From an uncultured Candidatus Saccharibacteria bacterium (GTDB taxonomy: Bacteria > Patescibacteriota > Minisyncoccia > Phycocordibacterales > CAYSCM01): a DNA stretch of 64,000 nucleotides. Made by a program: the position numbers and the translations under genes. The notes beneath the pieces were generated by a model, which saw only the letters and a list, made by a program, of their open reading frames with translations, was not told the origin of the DNA and did no database searches. Positions 15,620-50,076 of this stretch are shown piece by piece. The stretch covers positions 416,001 to 480,000 of the forward strand of contig CAYSCM010000001.1 in the NCBI GenBank assembly GCA_964429815.1, in the 5' to 3' direction. How positions within the stretch are numbered: the first letter of the stretch is position 1; every line of letters begins with the position of its first letter.

Positions 15620-15810
15620 CGCCGCCGCCCTCGCCACCGACGGCGCGGCTGGTTCGAGTTATTTCTAGTATTCTGCACTATAGCAGGCAACTGCTTGCCT
15701 GCGTGTGGGCATCGAAGGCCGCAGTGATGTTTCGTTAGGAGACGAAACCGCGGGGCGGGGTCGCGACCGAGGCGAGCGGCGGCGAGCTCTGATTTGTAGT
15801 TTCAAACTTG

Positions 15811-18231: not shown

Positions 18232-18711
18232 CTACTTGTCGCCGAGATACTCTTTAGCATCTTTGATCGCTGCCTTCTCTTCGTCGGTAAGCTCGTAGGA
18301 GGAGCTGCCTTTTTGGAGCGGCTTTCCAAACACACTCATACGATCCCTACTCCAGAGTGTCGAGAGGATCATGCCGTCTCCATCTTCGTTGAGGAATGCG
18401 GTAGCAAAGCTCTGAAATCCTCCCTCGCCGGTTCCCTTAAAAGGATTGAAGCGGATGGTTTTCACACCCTGCACGGCACGTCGGAGTCTTCGCTCGACGC
18501 GCGAGAGATATTTCTCCATCTCATCCTGCCACTCCCGCATCTCGATGAGCGACTTACCATGCTCGGCGATCGCGGACTCAAGGTCGGCGCCTTTCTTTCC
18601 GCGCGTGAGGCGATGAAGTCGCATTTCGAGGCGAATGATCCACAGCGTCGCGATGATGAGTGCGCCCGTAAGAATAAGAAGAAGCGTCGTGGTTTCAAAA
18701 GGAGCGGTCAC
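18232..18711 (-). CDS. DUF4446-like membrane-anchored protein
   Basis: N-terminal TM, coiled segment, then IRFNPFKGTGEGGFQSFATAFLNEDGDGMILSTLWSRD, the DUF4446 signature region. Confidence 0.55.
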   Translation of the reverse strand: MTAPFETTTLLLILTGALIIATLWIIRLEMRLHRLTRGKKGADLESAIAEHGKSLIEMREWQDEMEKYLSRVERRLRRAVQGVKTIRFNPFKGTGEGGFQSFATAFLNEDGDGMILSTLWSRDRMSVFGKPLQKGSSSYELTDEEKAAIKDAKEYLGDK

Positions 18712-18776
18712 GGCATAGCCATACTACACGCGGGGGACGCTTTTGCAAAACGGCACTCCCTGCGTAGAATGGCGCA

Positions 18777-19982
18777 ATGGTTTGGTTTCTGCGCCGAAAA
18801 GCGCCAGCATTGAAGCGAGTATACCTCGACTACGCATCGACTACGCCGGTCGACCCGCGCGTCAGCGCGGCCATGGCGCCATACCTTTCGGAGACCTTTG
18901 GGAATCCGAGCTCGCAGCACGAAGAGGGATTCGCGGCTCGCGACGCGCTCGCTATATTTCGCCGATCCATCGCGCGCACGATAGAGGCGCACGCGGACGA
19001 GATAACGTTCACCGGAAGCGGCTCGGAAGCAAACAATCTCGCCATTCTCGGTCTTGCGCGCGCGCTTGAGAGGAAGGGAAGAAAACTCTCCGACATGCAT
19101 GCCGTCGCCTCGGCCATCGAGCATCCCTCCGTGCTCGAGTGCCTTGCCAAGCTTCGTCGGCGGAGTCTCTCGGTCACTTTGGTGCGCCCCACCAAGGAGG
19201 GCATCGTAACGGCAGAGGCGATCGTGAAAGAGCTTACGGAGAGGACGGTGCTCGTTTCGGTTGGGCTCGTAAACGGCGAGATAGGGACGATCGCGCCATT
19301 GCGCAAGATCTCTCAGGTGCTCAGGGCCCGGAAGGGGGAGACGATCTACCTCCATACGGATGCGTCACAAGCGCCGCTCTACCTGTCGCTTCTTGTCGAT
19401 TCCCTTGGCATCGACCTCATGACGGTTGATGCACAAAAAATCTATGGACCCAAGGGCGTAGGGTTCCTCTACCACAAGCGCGGCGTGCCGCTCTCGCCAC
19501 AAACTCTCGGCGGTTCGCAAGAGTCGGGGCTACGCGCCGGCACTGAGCCGCTCTCGCTCATCGCGGGGCTCGCGACGGCACTTCGCCTCGCTCAGGAAGG
19601 GTGGAAAGAGCGTCGCGAGAGTACCATGTCGCTGCGTGACTATCTTATAGAAGGGTTGGAAGCGCGCATTCCCAAGGCTGTTCTCAACGGAAGCCGCAGC
19701 AAGCGCGTCGCGAACAACGTCAACATGTCGTTTCCAGGGATGGACGGAGAGTATCTGGCGGCGCTTCTCAATGCCGCGGGCTTTGCGGTCGCGACCAAAA
19801 GCGCATGCCTTAACAGAGAGCGTGTCTCCTACGTTATCGAGGCGTTGGGAGCGGACGAGGCCCGCTCTTCATCGGCGATTCGCATCACTCTTGGTATACA
19901 TGTAGGTCATGGGGAGCTCAATGCGTTCCTCAAATCACTCGCGACGATCGTTGCAAAATTTGACAAATCGCCTCAAAAGTGA
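18777..19982 (+). CDS. cysteine desulfurase (class V aminotransferase, IscS/NifS-like)
   Basis: VYLDYASTTPVDPRV...TGSGSEANNLAI...HTDASQA...MTVDAQKIYGPKGVGFLY (PLP-Lys region) and a C-terminal Cys loop (ATKSACLNRE). Confidence 0.85.
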   Translation: MVWFLRRKAPALKRVYLDYASTTPVDPRVSAAMAPYLSETFGNPSSQHEEGFAARDALAIFRRSIARTIEAHADEITFTGSGSEANNLAILGLARALERKGRKLSDMHAVASAIEHPSVLECLAKLRRRSLSVTLVRPTKEGIVTAEAIVKELTERTVLVSVGLVNGEIGTIAPLRKISQVLRARKGETIYLHTDASQAPLYLSLLVDSLGIDLMTVDAQKIYGPKGVGFLYHKRGVPLSPQTLGGSQESGLRAGTEPLSLIAGLATALRLAQEGWKERRESTMSLRDYLIEGLEARIPKAVLNGSRSKRVANNVNMSFPGMDGEYLAALLNAAGFAVATKSACLNRERVSYVIEALGADEARSSSAIRITLGIHVGHGELNAFLKSLATIVAKFDKSPQK

Positions 19983-24973: not shown

Positions 24974-25013
24974 CTGATCTAAAACCATTCCGATATCGTT
25001 CCATACGGCGCAC

Positions 25014-25055
25014 CAAAACAAAAACCCACAGCGAAAGGCTGTGGGTTTTTGTTTT
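25014..25055. terminator. bidirectional intrinsic terminator
   Basis: A-tract, cccacagc-gaaag-gctgtggg, then tttttgtttt. Confidence 0.6.
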
Positions 25056-25073
25056 GGCTCTATACTTAACTCA

Positions 25074-27873: not shown

Positions 27874-28032
27874 ATGTCACAAGATAGGCTTCTCAGGCTC
27901 AATTGCAGCGTCTGTAAGAACACCAATTATTGGACGAGCAAAAATAAAAAACTTGTCGAGCGCAAACTCGAGTTTAAAAAGTATTGCAAATTCTGCCGCA
28001 AGCAGACTATCCACAAGGAGGCAAAGAAATAA
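27874..28032 (+). CDS. rpmG: 50S ribosomal protein L33
   Basis: 52 aa, absent from the ORF track. MSQDRLLRLNCSVCKNTNYWTSKNKKLVERKLEFKKYCKFCRKQTIHKEAKK has the L33 CxxC...C..C zinc-ribbon and KLE-KK-C pattern. Confidence 0.8.
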   Translation: MSQDRLLRLNCSVCKNTNYWTSKNKKLVERKLEFKKYCKFCRKQTIHKEAKK

Positions 28033-28034
28033 TC

Positions 28035-28067
28035 AAAACACCGCCCCCAGGGGCGGTGTTTTGATTT
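28035..28067. terminator. bidirectional intrinsic terminator after rpmG
   Basis: aaaacaccgcccc-cag-gggcggtgtttt. Confidence 0.7.
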
Positions 28068-28098: not shown

Positions 28099-28170
28099 GG
28101 GCCTATAGTTTAATTGGTAAAACAGCGGTCTCCAAAACCGCCATTCCCCGTTCAAGTCGGGGTGGGCCCG
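28099..28170 (+). tRNA. tRNA-Trp (anticodon CCA)
   Basis: Acceptor GGGCCUA/UGGGCCC, anticodon stem GCGGU/ACCGC with loop CUCCAAA, T-arm CCCCG-UUCAAGU-CGGGG. The classic rpmG-tRNA-Trp linkage. Confidence 0.85.
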
Positions 28171-29071
28171 CCTGGAATTTATACGAGAGCGCTTTCTTCG
28201 CGGACGAAAACCAACGTATGCCGTTGTCACGTTTCCACCACGTCATCTGTCGACGCGAGAACTGCCAAATGGCAGCCTCAAGCCGCGTGAGCATCTCCTC
28301 TTTGGATAGTTTCCCCTCAAGGTAGTCGGCGAGATAGCGATACTCAAGTCCAAGCTCACGCATGCGCTTCAAGCGGAGCCCCCTTCGTCGTAGGCGCTTC
28401 GCCTCAGCGACCATTCCCTCTCGTATACGGGCATGAAGACGTTTCGCAATGTTGGCTCGGAGTTGCGAGTCTTTTGGCCGTATCCCGATTGTTACTGCCT
28501 CGTAGCGTGGTTTCGGGAGCTCTGCGGTTTTTTCTGCTGCGAGTGCGACCTCGATGGCGCGAATGAGACGCACGGGATTTTGCTTGTCGATAGTGAGATA
28601 GCGACGCGGGGCGAGCTCTTTAAGGAGTGTTTTGAGTTCTGGGAGCGTCTTCTTTCTTAAATGATGTCTGAGAGCGGCGTCTGGCCGGACATTGGCAAGC
28701 TTTGTCTTACCGAGTGCGGCATCGATGTAAAACGCCGAGCCGCCGACCATGATGGGCAGTTTACCGCGCCGCGCTATATCCTCGATAGCGGCGCGGGCAG
28801 CGATAGCGAAATCATACGCAGTGAAGACCCGCTTAGGGTCAGCGATGTCGAGGAGGTGATGGCGGACACCTTTCATCTCACGTTTCGTAATTTTGCCCGT
28901 GCCAATCGTGAGACCGCGATATACCTGTCGAGAATCCGCGGAAATTATCTCGCCGTTAAGTTTTTTTGCCAGTCGCACACCCAGGCCGCTTTTCCCAGAG
29001 GCTGTGGGGCCGACTATAACGAGCACTTTTGTTCTTACGGACCTGTTTTTGTATACTTCTTTCGTACTCAT
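28103..29071 (-). CDS. miaA: tRNA dimethylallyltransferase
   Basis: VLVIVGPTASGKSGLGVRLAKKLNGEIISADSRQVYRGLTIGTGK and the RRQMTWWKRD C-terminal motif. The last about 22 codons overlap tRNA-Trp on the opposite strand. Confidence 0.85.
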   Translation of the reverse strand: MSTKEVYKNRSVRTKVLVIVGPTASGKSGLGVRLAKKLNGEIISADSRQVYRGLTIGTGKITKREMKGVRHHLLDIADPKRVFTAYDFAIAARAAIEDIARRGKLPIMVGGSAFYIDAALGKTKLANVRPDAALRHHLRKKTLPELKTLLKELAPRRYLTIDKQNPVRLIRAIEVALAAEKTAELPKPRYEAVTIGIRPKDSQLRANIAKRLHARIREGMVAEAKRLRRRGLRLKRMRELGLEYRYLADYLEGKLSKEEMLTRLEAAIWQFSRRQMTWWKRDNGIRWFSSAKKALSYKFQAGPPRLERGMAVLETAVLPIKL

Positions 29072-29084
29072 TAACTACATACTT

Positions 29085-29663
29085 ATGGAAACCATCACAC
29101 CGATCCACATCGGACAAAAAGTCCCAGATCTAGCCTTCAATGTCTACCACAATGATAAGGAGAAGAAAATGAGCCTCTCTGATTTCAAAGGGAAGTGGCT
29201 TATCCTCTTCTTCTATCCAAAGGACTTTACCTTCGTGTGCCCGACCGAGCTCGAAGAGATGGCCGGCCTTTATGATAAGTTCAAAAAAGAGGGGGCAGAG
29301 ATCGTCTCGGTCTCAACCGATACCGTGCAGGTGCATAAAGCCTGGCATGACACGTCCGAAGCTATCAAAACGATAACCTTTCCGATGGCTGCGGACCCAA
29401 CGCACGCCCTCACGCACACCTTCGGTGTCCATATCGAGGAGGAGGGTGTGGCACTACGCGGCTCATTCGTGGTTGACCCTGAGGGAGTGCTTCAGGCGCT
29501 TGAGATAAACCCCGATGGGGTAGGGCGTAATGCGAAGGAACTTTTGCGCAAGGTGCAGGCGCTCAAATTCGTCCGGGAGCACGGGGACAAAGTGTGTCCG
29601 GCGAGCTGGGAACCGGGGGACGAGACTCTTACTCCCGGAATGGACCTTGTCGGGAAAATATAG
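29085..29663 (+). CDS. peroxiredoxin (typical 2-Cys, AhpC/Prx1 family)
   Basis: FTFVCPTELEE (peroxidatic Cys) and KVCPASWEPG (resolving Cys). Start set to ATG 29085 (METITPIH); the track ORF start at 28893 overlaps the miaA start. Confidence 0.85.
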   Translation: METITPIHIGQKVPDLAFNVYHNDKEKKMSLSDFKGKWLILFFYPKDFTFVCPTELEEMAGLYDKFKKEGAEIVSVSTDTVQVHKAWHDTSEAIKTITFPMAADPTHALTHTFGVHIEEEGVALRGSFVVDPEGVLQALEINPDGVGRNAKELLRKVQALKFVREHGDKVCPASWEPGDETLTPGMDLVGKI

Positions 29664-29707
29664 CCGCTAGAGAAGTACCCTCTCCGGGTCTTCTGATCTA
29701 CTAACTC

Positions 29708-29741
29708 CATATTCTAGTTTTTTGCAAAAAACTAGAATATG
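29708..29741. promoter_or_regulatory. 34-bp perfect palindrome catattctagttttttgcaaaaaactagaatatg (operator-like; contains symmetric ATTCTA-N16-TAGAAT)
   Basis: Exact reverse-complement symmetry over 34 bp. Related copies at 49628-49657 and 49931-49960 flank an ArsR-family gene. Confidence 0.55.
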
Positions 29742-29770
29742 AGATTTCTATTATATATAGCGTCGCGGTC

Positions 29771-29808
29771 GGGGAATAAAAAGAAAAGCGGCGGCTCGTG
29801 AGAGCCGC
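29771..29808 (-). terminator. intrinsic terminator of 29816-30559 gene
   Basis: gcggcggctc-gtga-gagccgccgc, followed on the minus strand by UUUUCUUUUUAUU. Confidence 0.65.
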
Positions 29809-29815
29809 CGCGGCA

Positions 29816-30559
29816 TTACCGGCGGTACAAATCCGTGTACTTGGTGATTATCTCAAGGGGTGACTTTTCATACCTTGGGTGAAAGAGCATTCGTCCCAAA
29901 ATATGATTCACCACTCGACCGTCCATGAGTGCAATAAGTTCTTCGGGCGTGATGGTATGGATTTGGTCGTCCTCCGCGATCCACGTGACCCACGTCGGGC
30001 GAATAGCGGGGATCCAAAAGATAACCTTATCGAAGCGAGGCTTTTCGAGCAGTGTCGGCAGATCCCTTCCCGAACAAACAATGTCATTGATACCGGCGTT
30101 GACTGCCTCGGTCGCGAGGAGTTCCACCGCCTCAGCTCGTGTCTCGACCTTGTGAAGTCGTCTGGTCTCAACAAGGGGCTGCGTCGTCGGAACCGTGACT
30201 GCAATCAGGGTAAGGTCGTGAGCTTTGGCAAGTGCGGCTCGCATCATGTGCTGCCCACCGACGGCAGCGACCGTGAGGTACTTCGCTCCAGCAAAGCGCG
30301 CTTTTTCAACGCGCTCCACCACGTCACTGTCGGCGCCATATCCTTTGTCGTCAACGAACACTCCTAGTGGGTCGAGTGGTCTTGCCGAGTGGATCGCGTT
30401 GACACCTCCTTTTAGGTTATGAGAGCGAAAGGGTCCGTGGATCTTGATACCCCGAACATGTGGATTCCTCGCGAGTTCAACTGCGAGGTTTTCATGCGTG
30501 TCTGGGAGCGGATGACCCAATCGCTCGTCAAGCGCTGGCCAAATTCTGAGTTCCTGCAT
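29816..30559 (-). CDS. OMP-decarboxylase/HPS-like TIM-barrel family protein (possible orotidine 5'-phosphate decarboxylase)
   Basis: 247 aa with a weak family-level resemblance (KYLTVAAVGG, C-terminal NHILGRMLF). Not confidently assigned. Confidence 0.3.
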   Translation of the reverse strand: MQELRIWPALDERLGHPLPDTHENLAVELARNPHVRGIKIHGPFRSHNLKGGVNAIHSARPLDPLGVFVDDKGYGADSDVVERVEKARFAGAKYLTVAAVGGQHMMRAALAKAHDLTLIAVTVPTTQPLVETRRLHKVETRAEAVELLATEAVNAGINDIVCSGRDLPTLLEKPRFDKVIFWIPAIRPTWVTWIAEDDQIHTITPEELIALMDGRVVNHILGRMLFHPRYEKSPLEIITKYTDLYRR

Positions 30560-30625
30560 TTCTCACCTCAGATGAACAGAGAATCTCGCGGTATAGTACG
30601 CTCCAAGAAAGGAAATGCAAGTTTG

Positions 30626-30709
30626 TGCCGGGGGAGAGAATCGAACTCTCATGACCGTGAGGTCGCACGATTTTGAGTCGTGTGCGTCTACCAATTCCGC
30701 CACCCCGGC
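30626..30709 (-). tRNA. tRNA-Leu (anticodon CAA), type II
   Basis: Acceptor GCCGGGG/CCCCGGC, anticodon stem CACGA/UCGUG with loop CUCAAAA, variable arm CGACCUCACGGUCAU, T-arm GAGAG-UUCGAUU-CUCUC. Confidence 0.8.
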
Positions 30710-30810
30710 AATTGGCTCCAATCTACACCACGCTGGATATTAAAGAAAATTCTTGCCGGCAGCGATAAGTTCGTGTAGATTCGGCGTAGCAGCTCTTAAG
30801 GGAGATCAAG

Positions 30811-31620
30811 ATGTCAGAGTCACTCACTAAGCGGCTCCGATTCGTGGAGACGTTTCAACGTCAAGCTGAACGAGAAAGTGAGAGGGACGAGTTTCAAATC
30901 GGGCGCCTCAAAGAACAACAGAGGCGGCGCAAGGAACGTGTCTATCAAATCCTTCGTCGCCTGAAGAGCGATCTGTCGACTGGAAGAATCCCGGTTCACA
31001 ACCGATTTCTCGCGTACGCCGCGCAGACGACCCACGCCGAAGGTCTGCACAATATTCCCTATCATTCCGCAGCTCTGAAGGCTCTCCACGGCGACTTATT
31101 GAAAAAGGAAGGGGAGTTGGCACTGGTAGCCACACTCTACATGCCCGAGTACCGACCGAGCGTCATAGTGGGTGTAATTGCTGCCGGCGGGTTACTAATC
31201 GGAGTAAACTCGCGAGGCGATCGCACCTGCTTCATTGATACTTCAAAACTCTCTCTCTGCTTCGGCGAGGAGGCTCATGATATGCCGGACGGACCGATGG
31301 CGATTGATGTTCCCCTTAGTCCCAGGTGGAGCAAGGATGACGGTCCACGACCTGAAGCGGGGTTTAACTGGCACTTTAAATTTTTCTTGGAGAACCACTT
31401 TGGTTGGCCAAAGCGGCGTGGGATTAAGGCGTTCGTCGCCGAATTACGTCGGGTGTGGTCCGGAGAAGGGATGCCGGAGAAAGGGTCTCAGTACCTTCTT
31501 TTGGGAAATGACGCCATCCGTAAAGCACAATACTTACTACAGCGTAGTGGAGTTGATCTTGGTCAGGTCAAAAAACTTTTTGGAGTCGATCTGAGCAAAT
31601 CAATTTCGGCGGCAGCCTAA
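30811..31620 (+). CDS. hypothetical protein (269 aa)
   Basis: Good SD (taAGGGAGatcaag-ATG). Charged coiled N-terminus, central hydrophobic patch, no recognisable domain. Followed by a terminator. Confidence 0.5.
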   Translation: MSESLTKRLRFVETFQRQAERESERDEFQIGRLKEQQRRRKERVYQILRRLKSDLSTGRIPVHNRFLAYAAQTTHAEGLHNIPYHSAALKALHGDLLKKEGELALVATLYMPEYRPSVIVGVIAAGGLLIGVNSRGDRTCFIDTSKLSLCFGEEAHDMPDGPMAIDVPLSPRWSKDDGPRPEAGFNWHFKFFLENHFGWPKRRGIKAFVAELRRVWSGEGMPEKGSQYLLLGNDAIRKAQYLLQRSGVDLGQVKKLFGVDLSKSISAAA

Positions 31621-31630
31621 TTCACCTACA

Positions 31631-31659
31631 AGCCCAGTGCGCAAGCGCTGGGCTTTTTG
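31631..31659 (+). terminator. intrinsic terminator
   Basis: agcccag-tgcgcaagcgc-ctgggct, then ttttt. Immediately followed by tacaat and the parB ATG. Confidence 0.5.
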
Positions 31660-31672
31660 TTACAATATCGAA

Positions 31673-32590
31673 ATGACCCCCTACGTCGGAGACTCCATTT
31701 TTTGGGTCGAGCTCGATCGCATCAAGCCCAACCCCTACCAGCCGCGGCGAGAGTTCGACGAGGGGAAACTTTCCGACCTCGCTGAGTCGATACGGCAGTA
31801 CGGCGTGTTGCAGCCCATCGTCGTTACGCGCAAAGAGGTCCGCAAGGAGGACGGTGGCATCGTAAGCGAGTACGAGCTCATCGCTGGCGAGCGTAGGCTC
31901 CGCGCCAGCAGGCTTGCTGGCCTTTCCCAAATTCCGGCCATTATTCGCAACGAAGCGGAAAGTGATCGGATGAAGCTCGAGCTCGCCATCATCGAAAATT
32001 TGCAGCGCGAAGACCTCAATCCCATGGACCGCGCTCGCGCGTTCGAGCGCCTCGTGAAGGAATTCGGCTTCAAGCAATCACAGATCGCGGACAAGGTGGC
32101 CAAGAGCCGCGAATATGTCGCCAACACCGTCCGCCTCCTCATGCTTCCCGCGCATATGCAGCAAGCCCTCTCGGAGGGGAAAATGACCGAGGGTCACACG
32201 CGGCCGCTTCTCATGCTTATCGACCGTAAAGACGAGCAGGAGGTCCTTTTCAAGGAAATACTCCTCAAGAAGCTTACCGTGCGCGAGGCGGAGGGTATCG
32301 CACGCCGCATTGCGGTCGACCGCGTCCGCAAGCGCGAGCTAGAGCCGGAACTCATTGAGCTTGAAAAAGCCCTCACCGAGCGTCTTGGCACGCGCGTGAA
32401 GATAGAAAAAAAGGAAGTTGGCGGCAAGCTTGTTATCGACTACTTTGACGCCAAGGACCTCCAGAGCATCGCCGATACGCTTTCGGCTAAAACCAGTTCT
32501 TCCGGTGGGGCGGAACCCGAAGTTCCGATCAATGACAAGCCGGAAAACGAGGAGGACGGCCTCTACTCGATAAAAAACTTCAGCGTTTAG
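31673..32590 (+). CDS. parB: ParB/Spo0J-family partition protein (orphan, no parA adjacent)
   Basis: IKPNPYQPRREFDEGKLSDLAESIRQYGVLQPIVV and GERRLRA ParB box. Start set to ATG 31673, 7 nt after tacaat. Track ORF begins at 31637. Confidence 0.8.
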   Translation: MTPYVGDSIFWVELDRIKPNPYQPRREFDEGKLSDLAESIRQYGVLQPIVVTRKEVRKEDGGIVSEYELIAGERRLRASRLAGLSQIPAIIRNEAESDRMKLELAIIENLQREDLNPMDRARAFERLVKEFGFKQSQIADKVAKSREYVANTVRLLMLPAHMQQALSEGKMTEGHTRPLLMLIDRKDEQEVLFKEILLKKLTVREAEGIARRIAVDRVRKRELEPELIELEKALTERLGTRVKIEKKEVGGKLVIDYFDAKDLQSIADTLSAKTSSSGGAEPEVPINDKPENEEDGLYSIKNFSV

Positions 32591-49556: not shown

Positions 49557-49627
49557 TCGCTCTATTTTATCCTATTTATCCTACGGCCAACCTTCCCACC
49601 CCAGCCTCCCCACCCCAGCCTCGTGTA

Positions 49628-49657
49628 TATTCCAGTATTTTGCAAAATACTAGAATG
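49628..49657. promoter_or_regulatory. palindromic operator/promoter motif upstream of ArsR gene (tattccagtattttgcaaaatactagaatg)
   Basis: 18-bp perfect palindrome agtattttgcaaaatact within an ATTCCA-N16-TAGAAT arrangement. The -10 (49651-56) is 30 nt before ATG 49686. Confidence 0.5.
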
Positions 49658-49685
49658 AGTTGTCTTCCTGGGGTACGATACAGCC

Positions 49686-49961
49686 ATGGCTCAGCACACT
49701 TTCCGTTCACTTGAGCGCATTATCAAAGGATTTGACAACCATCGACGGCTCGGGATTCTCGACCTTCTTAAGCGTAAACCTGAACTCTCCGTGGACGAAA
49801 TTGCGGAGCAACTTCGGATCGGCTACCAAAACGCCTCTGATCACATACGCAAAATGGCCATCGCAGGGTTGGTAGCTAAACGATATGAAGGGACGACCGT
49901 GCGACACAAACTCACGCCGCGGGCTGAGGATATTCTAATATTTTGCAAAAAACTGGAATAA
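49686..49961 (+). CDS. ArsR/SmtB-family HTH transcriptional regulator
   Basis: 91 aa. RLGILDLLKRKPELSVDEIAEQLRIGYQNASDHIRKMAIAGLV winged-helix region. No CxC metal site evident. Confidence 0.75.
   Translation: MAQHTFRSLERIIKGFDNHRRLGILDLLKRKPELSVDEIAEQLRIGYQNASDHIRKMAIAGLVAKRYEGTTVRHKLTPRAEDILIFCKKLE
49931..49960. promoter_or_regulatory. third copy of the palindromic motif, embedded in the last codons of the ArsR gene (tattctaatattttgcaaaaaactggaata)
   Basis: Encodes ...DILIFCKKLE-stop. Imperfect palindrome, closely similar to the copies at 29708 and 49628. Confidence 0.45.
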
Positions 49962-50076
49962 GGAAACAATAATAAGGAAACAATGAGGATACGAGAGGAC
50001 GAAAATGGAAAAACTTGAATAAAGAAGTAAGGAAAAGCGCAAAGGGGGAAACGCAGAGTCATACAAAATAAGTGAG

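Follow-up and report, generated by a model that had tools for sequence, protein, structure and literature searches.

A palindrome downstream of a peroxiredoxin gene in a Patescibacteria genome as a probable orphan copy of the box bracketing the gene of a HlyU-like winged-helix protein

Between a peroxiredoxin gene and a convergent gene in a 64,000-nucleotide stretch of contig CAYSCM010000001.1 from an uncultured Candidatus Saccharibacteria bacterium (this whole stretch is the window hereafter) lies a 34-bp sequence, CATATTCTAGTTTTTTGCAAAAAACTAGAATATG (positions 29708-29741). It is exactly self-complementary, as a sequence-only reading of the window had claimed, and 100 shufflings of the window gave zero matches to the palindrome at three or fewer mismatches. 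We find that it belongs to a family of palindromic boxes in Paceibacteria-type genomes, whose members bracket the gene of a small ArsR/SmtB-fold protein, and that the box which forms the end of that gene is under selection at the DNA level. The explanation that we favour, and hold to be probable though far from certain, is that the palindrome at 29708 is an orphan copy of a cruciform-prone box, recognized as double-stranded DNA, which is cognate to this HlyU-like winged helix-turn-helix (wHTH) protein and its putative target.

A box family tied to the gene of a winged-helix protein

In the species-representative genome collection, the core of the box, ATTCYAGTNTTTTGCAAAANACTRGAAT, occurs at no fewer than 119 loci in 69 Patescibacteria metagenome-assembled genomes (MAGs); the search pattern, TTCNAGTNTTTTGCAAAANACTNGAA, has 22 fixed bases, for which about 0.03 chance matches are expected in 596 Gb. 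All the matches listed fall in Paceibacteria-type MAGs, viz., those of Kaiser-, Adler-, Taylor-, Lipton-, Moran- and Nomurabacteria, and a relaxed rescan of these loci yielded 180 boxes, with one MAG reaching 15 and a second one 12. The viral contig collection held no box at all, and we set aside a phage or att origin on that count. Rfam, run at the gathering threshold over the window, returned only tRNAs, so the box corresponds to no known RNA; in the literature, we found no description of this box or of the associated protein family in Patescibacteria. The box has a 28-bp core that is often perfectly palindromic across 34-40 bp and reads as an 11-nt arm, a 6-nt TTGCAA centre and a second 11-nt arm, with the hexamers TTCTAG, TTGCAA and CTAGAA spaced 10 bp apart on the same face of the helix.

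A position weight matrix (PWM) scan of the window detects three boxes only, at 46-54 bits, with the next best site at -18. These and the gene that two of them bracket are:

29708-29741, no strand: orphan box; 28-bp core at 29711-29738; PWM score 48.6
49626-49659, no strand: the regulator's upstream box, in a divergent intergenic region with the ATG 29 nt further on; core at 49629-49656; PWM score 53.9
49686-49961, plus strand: gene of a 91-aa winged-helix protein of the ArsR/SmtB fold, closest to HlyU; the presumed box-binding protein
49929-49962, no strand: 3' box; core at 49932-49959; PWM score 46.2; codes for residues 82-91 (DILIFCKKLE) and the stop codon

The orphan copy is of the T5/T9 type, TTCTAGTT...AACTAGAA. 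The sequence-only reading had described two related copies flanking the ArsR-family gene; both copies exist and the first indeed lies outside the gene, but the second lies inside it, as the last ten codons and the stop. As side observations, the third-best PWM match after the three boxes, with a negative score, is TATTTCTAGTATTCTGCA at 15659-15676, which resembles an arm plus the centre (a half-box), and a perfect 14-nt tandem duplication, two units of AATAAGGAAACAAT at 49957-49984, starts within the final 3 nt of the 3' box and takes in the regulator's stop.

The protein matches the Pfam families HTH_20 (35.9 bits, cut-off 27) and HTH_5 (28.6 bits, cut-off 22), and scores 50 bits against the NCBIfam model HTH_metalloreg, slightly under its cut-off of 55. 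Its closest PDB entry is HlyU (3jth, E = 5e-10), followed by CadC, CzrA, SqrR, AspA and NolR. An AlphaFold2 model (mean predicted confidence, pLDDT, 85) has the topology α1-α2-α3-αR-β1-β2-α5, with helices at residues 2-15, 19-30, 36-43 and 47-59, strands at 63-68 and 71-76, and a last helix at 78-90; Foldseek matches it to SqrR, YgaV, HlyU, SmtB and CadC at template-modelling (TM) scores of 0.73-0.80 (HlyU at ~0.73) and also to AspA. The residues coded by the 3' box form α5 in this model, and α5 is the dimerisation helix in the ArsR/SmtB family. Across these candidate phyla, the protein family is 70-80% identical. In an alignment of 20 sequences, the metal-ligand motifs (the α3N Cys pair and the α5 Asp/His/Glu site) are absent, there being no Cys in α3 and a single one, Cys87, in α5. 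Since the ArsR/SmtB metal-ligand sets are absent, the regulator, judged from its residues, does not belong to the typical metal sensors; it might respond to a redox signal or to some other one.

The link between box and gene was followed in 37 of the listed genome loci, those with a homologue, and in 80 further metagenome loci (from at least 599 matching stretches); 101 distinct homologues were compared. In about 97 of the 101, one box stands 6-60 nt before the start codon and another at the stop codon or, in a single lineage, 75-86 nt past it. That Liptonbacteria-type lineage has the C-terminus LTFCRSLK, encoded by DNA that is not palindromic, and has its 3' box outside the coding DNA instead; the conserved feature is therefore the box-gene-box layout itself. 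A Shine-Dalgarno-like AAGG often follows immediately 3' of the upstream box in other genomes. In a Kaiserbacteria-like clade (L013, L020, L036, L047, L049, L099), the regulator gene sits directly downstream of a Mg-chelatase/ComM-like gene (assigned by eye), and the upstream box lies 4-13 nt past the stop of that gene in the same six loci. A separate minus-strand ORF of 168 aa (L119, 3485-3991), which is not an ArsR protein, ends in IPVFCKTLE and a stop, with a box in the regulator's frame; this low-complexity ORF is possibly spurious.

The coding copy of the box is under selection at the DNA level, with its synonymous sites frozen across the family. Leu84 is encoded by CTA in 99 of 103 genes (a codon used for 5% of the other Leu residues in these genes), Phe86 by TTT in 102 of 103 (48% elsewhere) and Lys88 by AAA in 101 of 103 (49% elsewhere), and ATC, which makes up 35% of Ile codons elsewhere in these genes, is never used for Ile83. 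Residue 89 is K, T, R or I, matching A, C, G or T at operator position 9'. The AACG paralogues, whose C-terminus is HVLTFCKTLE, have changes in both arms, among them a synonymous CTA to TTA change, and their upstream box carries the same variant. In L032, an unusual centre of the coding copy, ATTCTTGAGAAT (encoding FLRILE), is mirrored in the upstream box. More generally, the two boxes of a gene, upstream and 3', agree at 24.9 of 28 positions on average, as against 23.1 for cross pairs (permutation p < 2e-4), and paralogues carry matching box variants, MFLD and JAUSHX each having two regulators and two box types. Correlations reach into the rest of the protein: K or R at the wing tip occurs with all 11 arms of the AAC variant and with none of the 174 others, and E or Q at residue 48 tracks T or C at box position 5 (odds ratio 3.4, p = 0.013).

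On the explanation favoured here, the 91-aa protein would bind the box as double-stranded DNA and would regulate its own gene by occupying both the box before the ribosome-binding site and start codon and the box formed by its own last ten codons. HlyU, the nearest homologue with a solved structure, supplies a precedent for several of these elements. Its site in the exsBA region of V. parahaemolyticus is a palindrome, ATTTAATTTA, enclosed by the perfect inverted repeats ATATTAG/CTAATAT; binding of HlyU yields two shifted species, and a DNA cruciform at the site is attenuated (PMC10325908); the V. cholerae site spans 17 bp (PMC4330345). In our boxes too, perfect inverted repeats (ATATTCTAG/CTAGAATAT) flank an AT-rich palindromic spacer (TTTTTTGCAAAAAA), the two shifted species of HlyU fit more than one dimer, and the sites are alike AT-rich and cruciform-prone, the latter judged here from computed hairpin potential. 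In contrast, the HlyU sites lie at a few virulence promoters and are imperfect or shorter (PMC4330345), whereas the box is 28-40 bp long and hardly varies throughout a whole class; it stands on both sides of the gene of its presumed regulator, with one copy coding, and also occurs in housekeeping genes.

The autorepressors SmtB, CzrA and CadC, with their 12-2-12 operators, are comparable as small wHTH proteins (dimeric in that family) with an α5 dimerisation helix, and in that an AT-rich inverted repeat, its arms reading TTC...GAA, adjoins the promoter of the protein itself. They differ from the regulator described here in their metal-ligand motifs, in that its second putative operator lies within its own last codons, and in that many of its orphan sites lie off promoters. 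Binding of two dimers per operator is probable in ArsR/SmtB autorepressors. With its three hexamers 10 bp apart on one face, each box could also take up two dimers. The sites of ParB (parS) and of the archaeal AspA centromere system provide another parallel: these are high-information, all-or-none palindromes present in a few to about 15 copies per genome, tolerated in frame in conserved genes, with one copy in or next to the gene of the binding protein, and AspA is itself an ArsR-like wHTH protein among the structural matches of the regulator. Unlike in parS/ParB systems, however, the protein linked to the box is ArsR-like, no ParA-type ATPase is seen next to its gene, and the canonical ParB of the window is encoded by a separate gene (31637-32590). 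We tried and rejected the box as a canonical parS, of which the window has none.

The palindrome at 29708 and the symmetry of the boxes

The features around the orphan copy are:

29085-29663, plus strand: peroxiredoxin gene (AhpC/TSA; Pfam AhpC-TSA, E = 3e-40) upstream of the box; 192-aa product P0122
29664-29775, no strand: stretch of ~112 nt from the peroxiredoxin stop to the conserved GC-rich terminator; contains the box; missing in the syntenic relative L204
29788-29811, minus strand: canonical GC-rich intrinsic terminator of the convergent gene, with 10 pairs (9 GC) and the tail TTTTCTTTTT; distinct from the box
29816-30559, minus strand: OMP-decarboxylase-like gene, divergent in sequence (Pfam OMPdecase, E = 6e-9), convergent with the peroxiredoxin gene

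The box begins 44 nt past the peroxiredoxin stop TAG (29661-29663) and ends 74 nt short of the convergent ORF. A search for orthologues of the OMPdecase-like gene returned no close homologue, only the gene itself, and synteny was therefore followed through the peroxiredoxin. Three relatives, with peroxiredoxins 88%, 79% and 73% identical to that of the window, keep the neighbourhood miaA-prx-(phosphoribosyltransferase)-OMPdecase-ParB-RelA, and none of them has a box within 4 kb on either side. In one of these, L204, the orthologous GC-rich terminator stands 8 nt past the prx stop, the window being about 112 nt longer there, box included. The copy at 29708 is thus lineage-specific. Its flanks showed no similarity to anything else, and we dropped a larger unit of the kind seen in miniature inverted-repeat transposable elements (MITEs) on that ground. 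Also dropped was the notion of a relic of a paralogous ArsR 3' end at 29708: an in-frame stop lies five codons upstream, no further homology is seen and the palindrome stays perfect beyond the codons.

Some further observations concern this locus. In L204 and in L206, another of the syntenic relatives, a phosphoribosyltransferase gene, which the window does not have, stands between the peroxiredoxin and OMPdecase genes, and the OMPdecase gene of L204 is on the opposite strand relative to the window. A 7-nt direct repeat, ATATAGC, occurs at 29658-29664, overlapping the peroxiredoxin stop codon, and at 29755-29761, 97 nt away with the box between; it may be due to chance or be a duplication scar. 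The Logan unitigs L200, L201 and L202 of the same organism all end within the palindrome (L201 at ...CAAAAAACTAGAATA).

The sequence-only reading had proposed the palindrome as a candidate operator of the ArsR-family regulator. As regards the box family and the regulator gene, this idea draws support from the bracketing of nearly all homologues, the matching variants and the HlyU-like layout of the site; at 29708 itself, a classical promoter-operator role is unlikely because the flanking genes are convergent and the copy is absent at this locus in relatives. Protein bound at 29708 might instead act as a roadblock or insulator against read-through from the peroxiredoxin gene; alternatively, it might control cruciform extrusion and local topology, in either case without promoter-operator action. 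As DNA, this copy folds into a 15-bp hairpin (-12.1 kcal/mol, z = -7.2).

The symmetry of the boxes is a property of the family and not just of this copy. Variable positions covary symmetrically in upstream boxes and in orphan boxes, by which we mean the 112 boxes unattached to a regulator gene among the listed matches; the coding copies are without such covariation. Position 9 is complementary to its partner in 88 of the 112 boxes (39.9 expected) and position 5 in 103 (72.5 expected); in the flanks, complementarity exceeds expectation at positions -1 to -5, with nothing past -6. When arms were shuffled within genomes, none of 2000 trials reached the observed complementarity at positions 9, 5 and 0 to -4. 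Perfect palindromes over 28, 34 and 40 bp make up 65%, 43% and 12% of the orphan boxes. An RNA hairpin leaves marks that are missing here: in the direction of arriving transcription, the 12 nt after a box hold 3.4 T against 3.2, i.e., no enrichment of a T-tract, and on the sense strand G·U pairs show no excess over A·C (35 vs 46 in tandem regions, 16 vs 19 in genes, 51 vs 65 in total). On both grounds, we reject a family of RNA hairpins or terminators, and the bidirectional terminator that the sequence-only reading had offered as an alternative is not supported as the function of the family. Because the arms are complementary without G·U bias, the symmetry probably resides in the DNA and not in the RNA. 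It could be caused by selection for a cruciform or hairpin, by quasipalindrome template switching or by copying of whole boxes. A mimic of an anticodon loop (UUGCAAA) was considered and dropped, as a perfect palindrome gives even-sized loops and no signal is seen at the RNA level.

The copy at 29708 might nevertheless be an AT-rich intrinsic terminator of the peroxiredoxin gene in its own right, a reading to which we give little credence. A terminator scan flags it on the plus strand (15 pairs, loop UGCA, tail AGATTTCTAT), the hairpin is retained in the RNA fold of 29664-29830 (z = -6.2), no other plus-strand terminator lies between the peroxiredoxin and the convergent gene, and the prx genes of relatives end with a hairpin terminator at this place. 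However, only 3 of its 15 stem pairs are GC and its U-tract is weak, the conserved bidirectional GC-rich hairpin 47 nt beyond could serve prx, and, besides showing neither the T enrichment nor the G·U excess, many members of the family lie within genes or upstream of starts.

Still less probable, to the point where we hardly reckon with it, is the symmetric bidirectional promoter suggested by the sequence-only reading, in which ATTCTA-N16-TAGAAT would serve as -35 and -10 on both strands and give rise to antisense or small transcripts. On both strands TAGAAT matches 5 of 6 positions of TATAAT, and the distance between the regulator's ATG and its upstream box would suit a promoter. On the other side, ATTCTA matches only 3 of 6 positions of TTGACA, and a promoter scan of 28900-31000 made no call at the site. 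A transcription start 7 nt past TAGAAT would cut off the AAGG found directly after the box in many homologues; moreover, there is no conserved downstream element, a quarter of the boxes are intragenic and many lie between convergent genes. The TTGCAA centre as a -35 element with a -10 downstream of the box was rejected too: it agrees with L159 and fails in the window, L207 and L208.

Orphan boxes between regulation, copying and recombination

By crude ORF calls, the orphan boxes are placed as follows:

Tandem intergenic regions: 41 orphan boxes in 49 kb
Convergent intergenic regions: 23 orphan boxes in 21 kb
Divergent intergenic regions: 8 orphan boxes in 17 kb
Inside ORFs: 36 orphan boxes, ~24 of them in long real genes

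The intragenic boxes translate in frame as (Y/H)SS(I/V)LQNT(R/G)I, and Pfam confirms box-bearing genes of TGT, TsaD, IPPT (MiaA), TruB, TatD and others. The gene of L002 and L100 was tried as a dihydroorotase (pyrC), which Pfam did not confirm, and it is called pyrC-like only. In MiaA, the box takes the place of 'IEEVAQRGKVP' with the length unchanged; in four Tgt proteins, 66-76% identical to each other, it sits in the same loop; and in TsaD it sits in one loop in three proteins and in another loop in a fourth. The position of the in-frame box is conserved without an indel in tgt (four genomes), tsaD, miaA and the pyrC-like gene. Since the positions are kept without indels while the flanks diverge, at least the copies in tgt, tsaD and miaA are probably under selection. 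Overall, tRNA-modification genes contain, or have within 7 nt, 12 of the 112 orphan boxes, mostly in frame at conserved loops; this share, being counted among the listed matches, is only indicative:

tgt: L021, L034, L063, L081
tsaD: L055, L076, L104, L018
miaA: L107, L118, L044
truB: L010

Several observations weigh against the explanation favoured here. The orphan boxes are spread over the types of intergenic region roughly in proportion to region length, with no clear bias to promoters or terminators, and this spread, together with about a quarter of boxes within genes, is unlike a classical promoter-operator regulon. The copies are all-or-none, the PWM scan of the window showing no gradient of weaker sites. 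Palindromy runs on into flanks that are not conserved, which protein binding would not necessarily need. The correlations of the wing tip and residue 48 with the box fit direct read-out to some extent but come from few independent clades. Near the regulator gene, asymmetric boxes are in the direct orientation of the coding copy in 48 cases and inverted in 8, and in L159 (2707-2952) a 123-nt unit of box plus spacer, immediately 5' of the regulator's upstream box, is tandemly duplicated at 88% identity, leaving three boxes at 123-nt spacing. The direct orientation and the tandem duplication point to copying by recombination. Three relatives lack the window copy at the orthologous position, and it may thus serve no function whatever.

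These points are in good part what a selfish or neutral palindromic repeat would present, akin to repetitive extragenic palindromes (REPs), Rickettsia palindromic elements (RPEs) or MITEs, spreading by local duplication, unequal crossing-over, template switching or gene conversion; the window copy would then be recent and functionless, and the wHTH gene would merely carry or tolerate the repeat. We consider this a rather unlikely but serious rival. It would account for up to 15 copies per genome at unrelated sites, some in frame in genes, for their all-or-none nature and shared orientation in arrays, for the L159 duplication, for a window copy within ~112 nt absent from L204, and for the length-proportional distribution; quasipalindrome template switching would produce perfect palindromes that extend into unique flanks. 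Against it, the box alone is repeated, with no larger unit and no transposase seen; copy number is low; the tgt, tsaD and miaA boxes replace sequence without an indel at the same position across proteins 54-76% identical with diverging flanks; and neither the near-universal box-gene-box layout in ~100 homologues, nor the frozen synonymous sites of the coding copy, nor the zero copies in viral contigs favour it. REPs, the bacterial interspersed mosaic elements (BIMEs) and RPEs resemble the boxes as dispersed palindromes, some of them, as with RPEs, in frame in coding genes, but the boxes differ in their low copy number, in that the intragenic ones replace rather than insert, in positions conserved between genera, and in their tight tie to one DNA-binding protein gene. 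The sequence-only reading would have recognized a REP-like repeat in occurrences at dozens of unrelated intergenic sites, and the boxes go part of the way towards this: some genomes have 12-15 of them, including copies in genes, yet among the listed matches no genome exceeds 15, about a quarter lie in genes, and, next to a window copy absent from three relatives, the tgt and tsaD boxes are conserved between genera.

A different view would take the boxes as boundaries of gene cassettes or as sites of site-specific recombination, as in integron attC sites or Xer pdif modules. A recombinase would then cut and rejoin the 11-6-11 box, with the ArsR-like gene as one cassette and each solo box as an empty or excised site. 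The arm-centre-arm geometry is indeed dif-like. The boxes cluster by the regulator (the 340 kb surrounding 80 homologues contain 33 additional boxes), and other small genes adjoining it (DUF1653-like, OmdA-like and one for a 131-aa membrane protein) are each bracketed by boxes in direct orientation. The greater likeness of same-gene boxes is also in line with this view, as is a stretch in L208 shared beyond the stop; close relatives have the regulator module in differing neighbourhoods; and the window copy lies at a locus of altered gene content. Like attC and the pdif sites of Acinetobacter, the boxes are palindromes that delimit single small genes in co-oriented arrays and keep arm-to-arm complementarity where their sequence varies. 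However, no tyrosine recombinase or other recombinase gene was found linked to the boxes, no systematic search having been made; the site is perfectly symmetric and without polarity; its core is far more conserved than that of attC; in-frame boxes at fixed positions in housekeeping genes are hard to square with active recombination; and ordinary unequal crossing-over would explain the L159 duplication. We regard this view as improbable.

A wider reading, and further features of the window

The observations can also be drawn together in a broader and bolder reading, which as a whole we judge unlikely but worth stating. Paceibacteria would have an undescribed genome-wide system in which the codons for the dimerisation helix of a dedicated wHTH protein double as the site that this protein binds, residues 83-91 co-evolving with the operator; cruciform-prone boxes would mark or delimit other loci, some as boundaries of recombining cassettes of small genes and others as conserved in-frame roadblocks in tgt, tsaD, miaA and truB; and the window copy would be a solo box left behind or created by box-to-box recombination.

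Gene regulation in the Candidate Phyla Radiation/Patescibacteria is barely known, and these bacteria cannot be grown as pure cultures. What is gained here is a near-invariant box of 28-40 bp, one small, expressible protein tied to it in ~100 genomes, and conserved target loci, tRNA-modification genes among them; with box, protein and target loci defined, the regulator-operator pair is directly testable in vitro. An operator made of the regulator's last ten codons, with frozen synonymous sites, would be unusual for any bacterial regulator, and residue 89 (K/T/R/I), which mirrors operator position 9', together with the frozen codons, provides a natural example of overlapping protein and DNA codes. 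Moreover, perfect palindromes break short-read/de Bruijn assemblies, as in the Logan unitigs that end in the box, which matters for the quality of MAGs.

Lastly, we record some features elsewhere in the window. The 3' end of the miaA ORF (28103-29071, minus strand) overlaps the entire tRNA-Trp gene (28099-28172, plus strand), and the tail of the MiaA encoded in the window is about 25 aa longer than in homologues. Perfect inverted repeats of 20 bp and 17 bp at 25013-25057 and 28031-28066, flanked by A-runs and T-runs, look like ordinary bidirectional terminators unrelated to the box. Between the divergent ORFs 18232-18711 (minus) and 18777-19982 (plus) lies a 56-bp imperfect palindrome (18718-18773) with the centre TTTTGCAAAA, in which a self-complementary TTGCAA has TAGAAT 16 nt to its right on the plus strand and TAGTAT to its left on the minus strand. 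A general promoter class of the form TTGCAA-N17-TAGAAT was discarded, with a single instance in the window, at 18743; the looser TTGCAA-N15-19-TANAAT likewise has its sole instance in the window at 18718-18773, which looks like two divergent promoters with one common -35.

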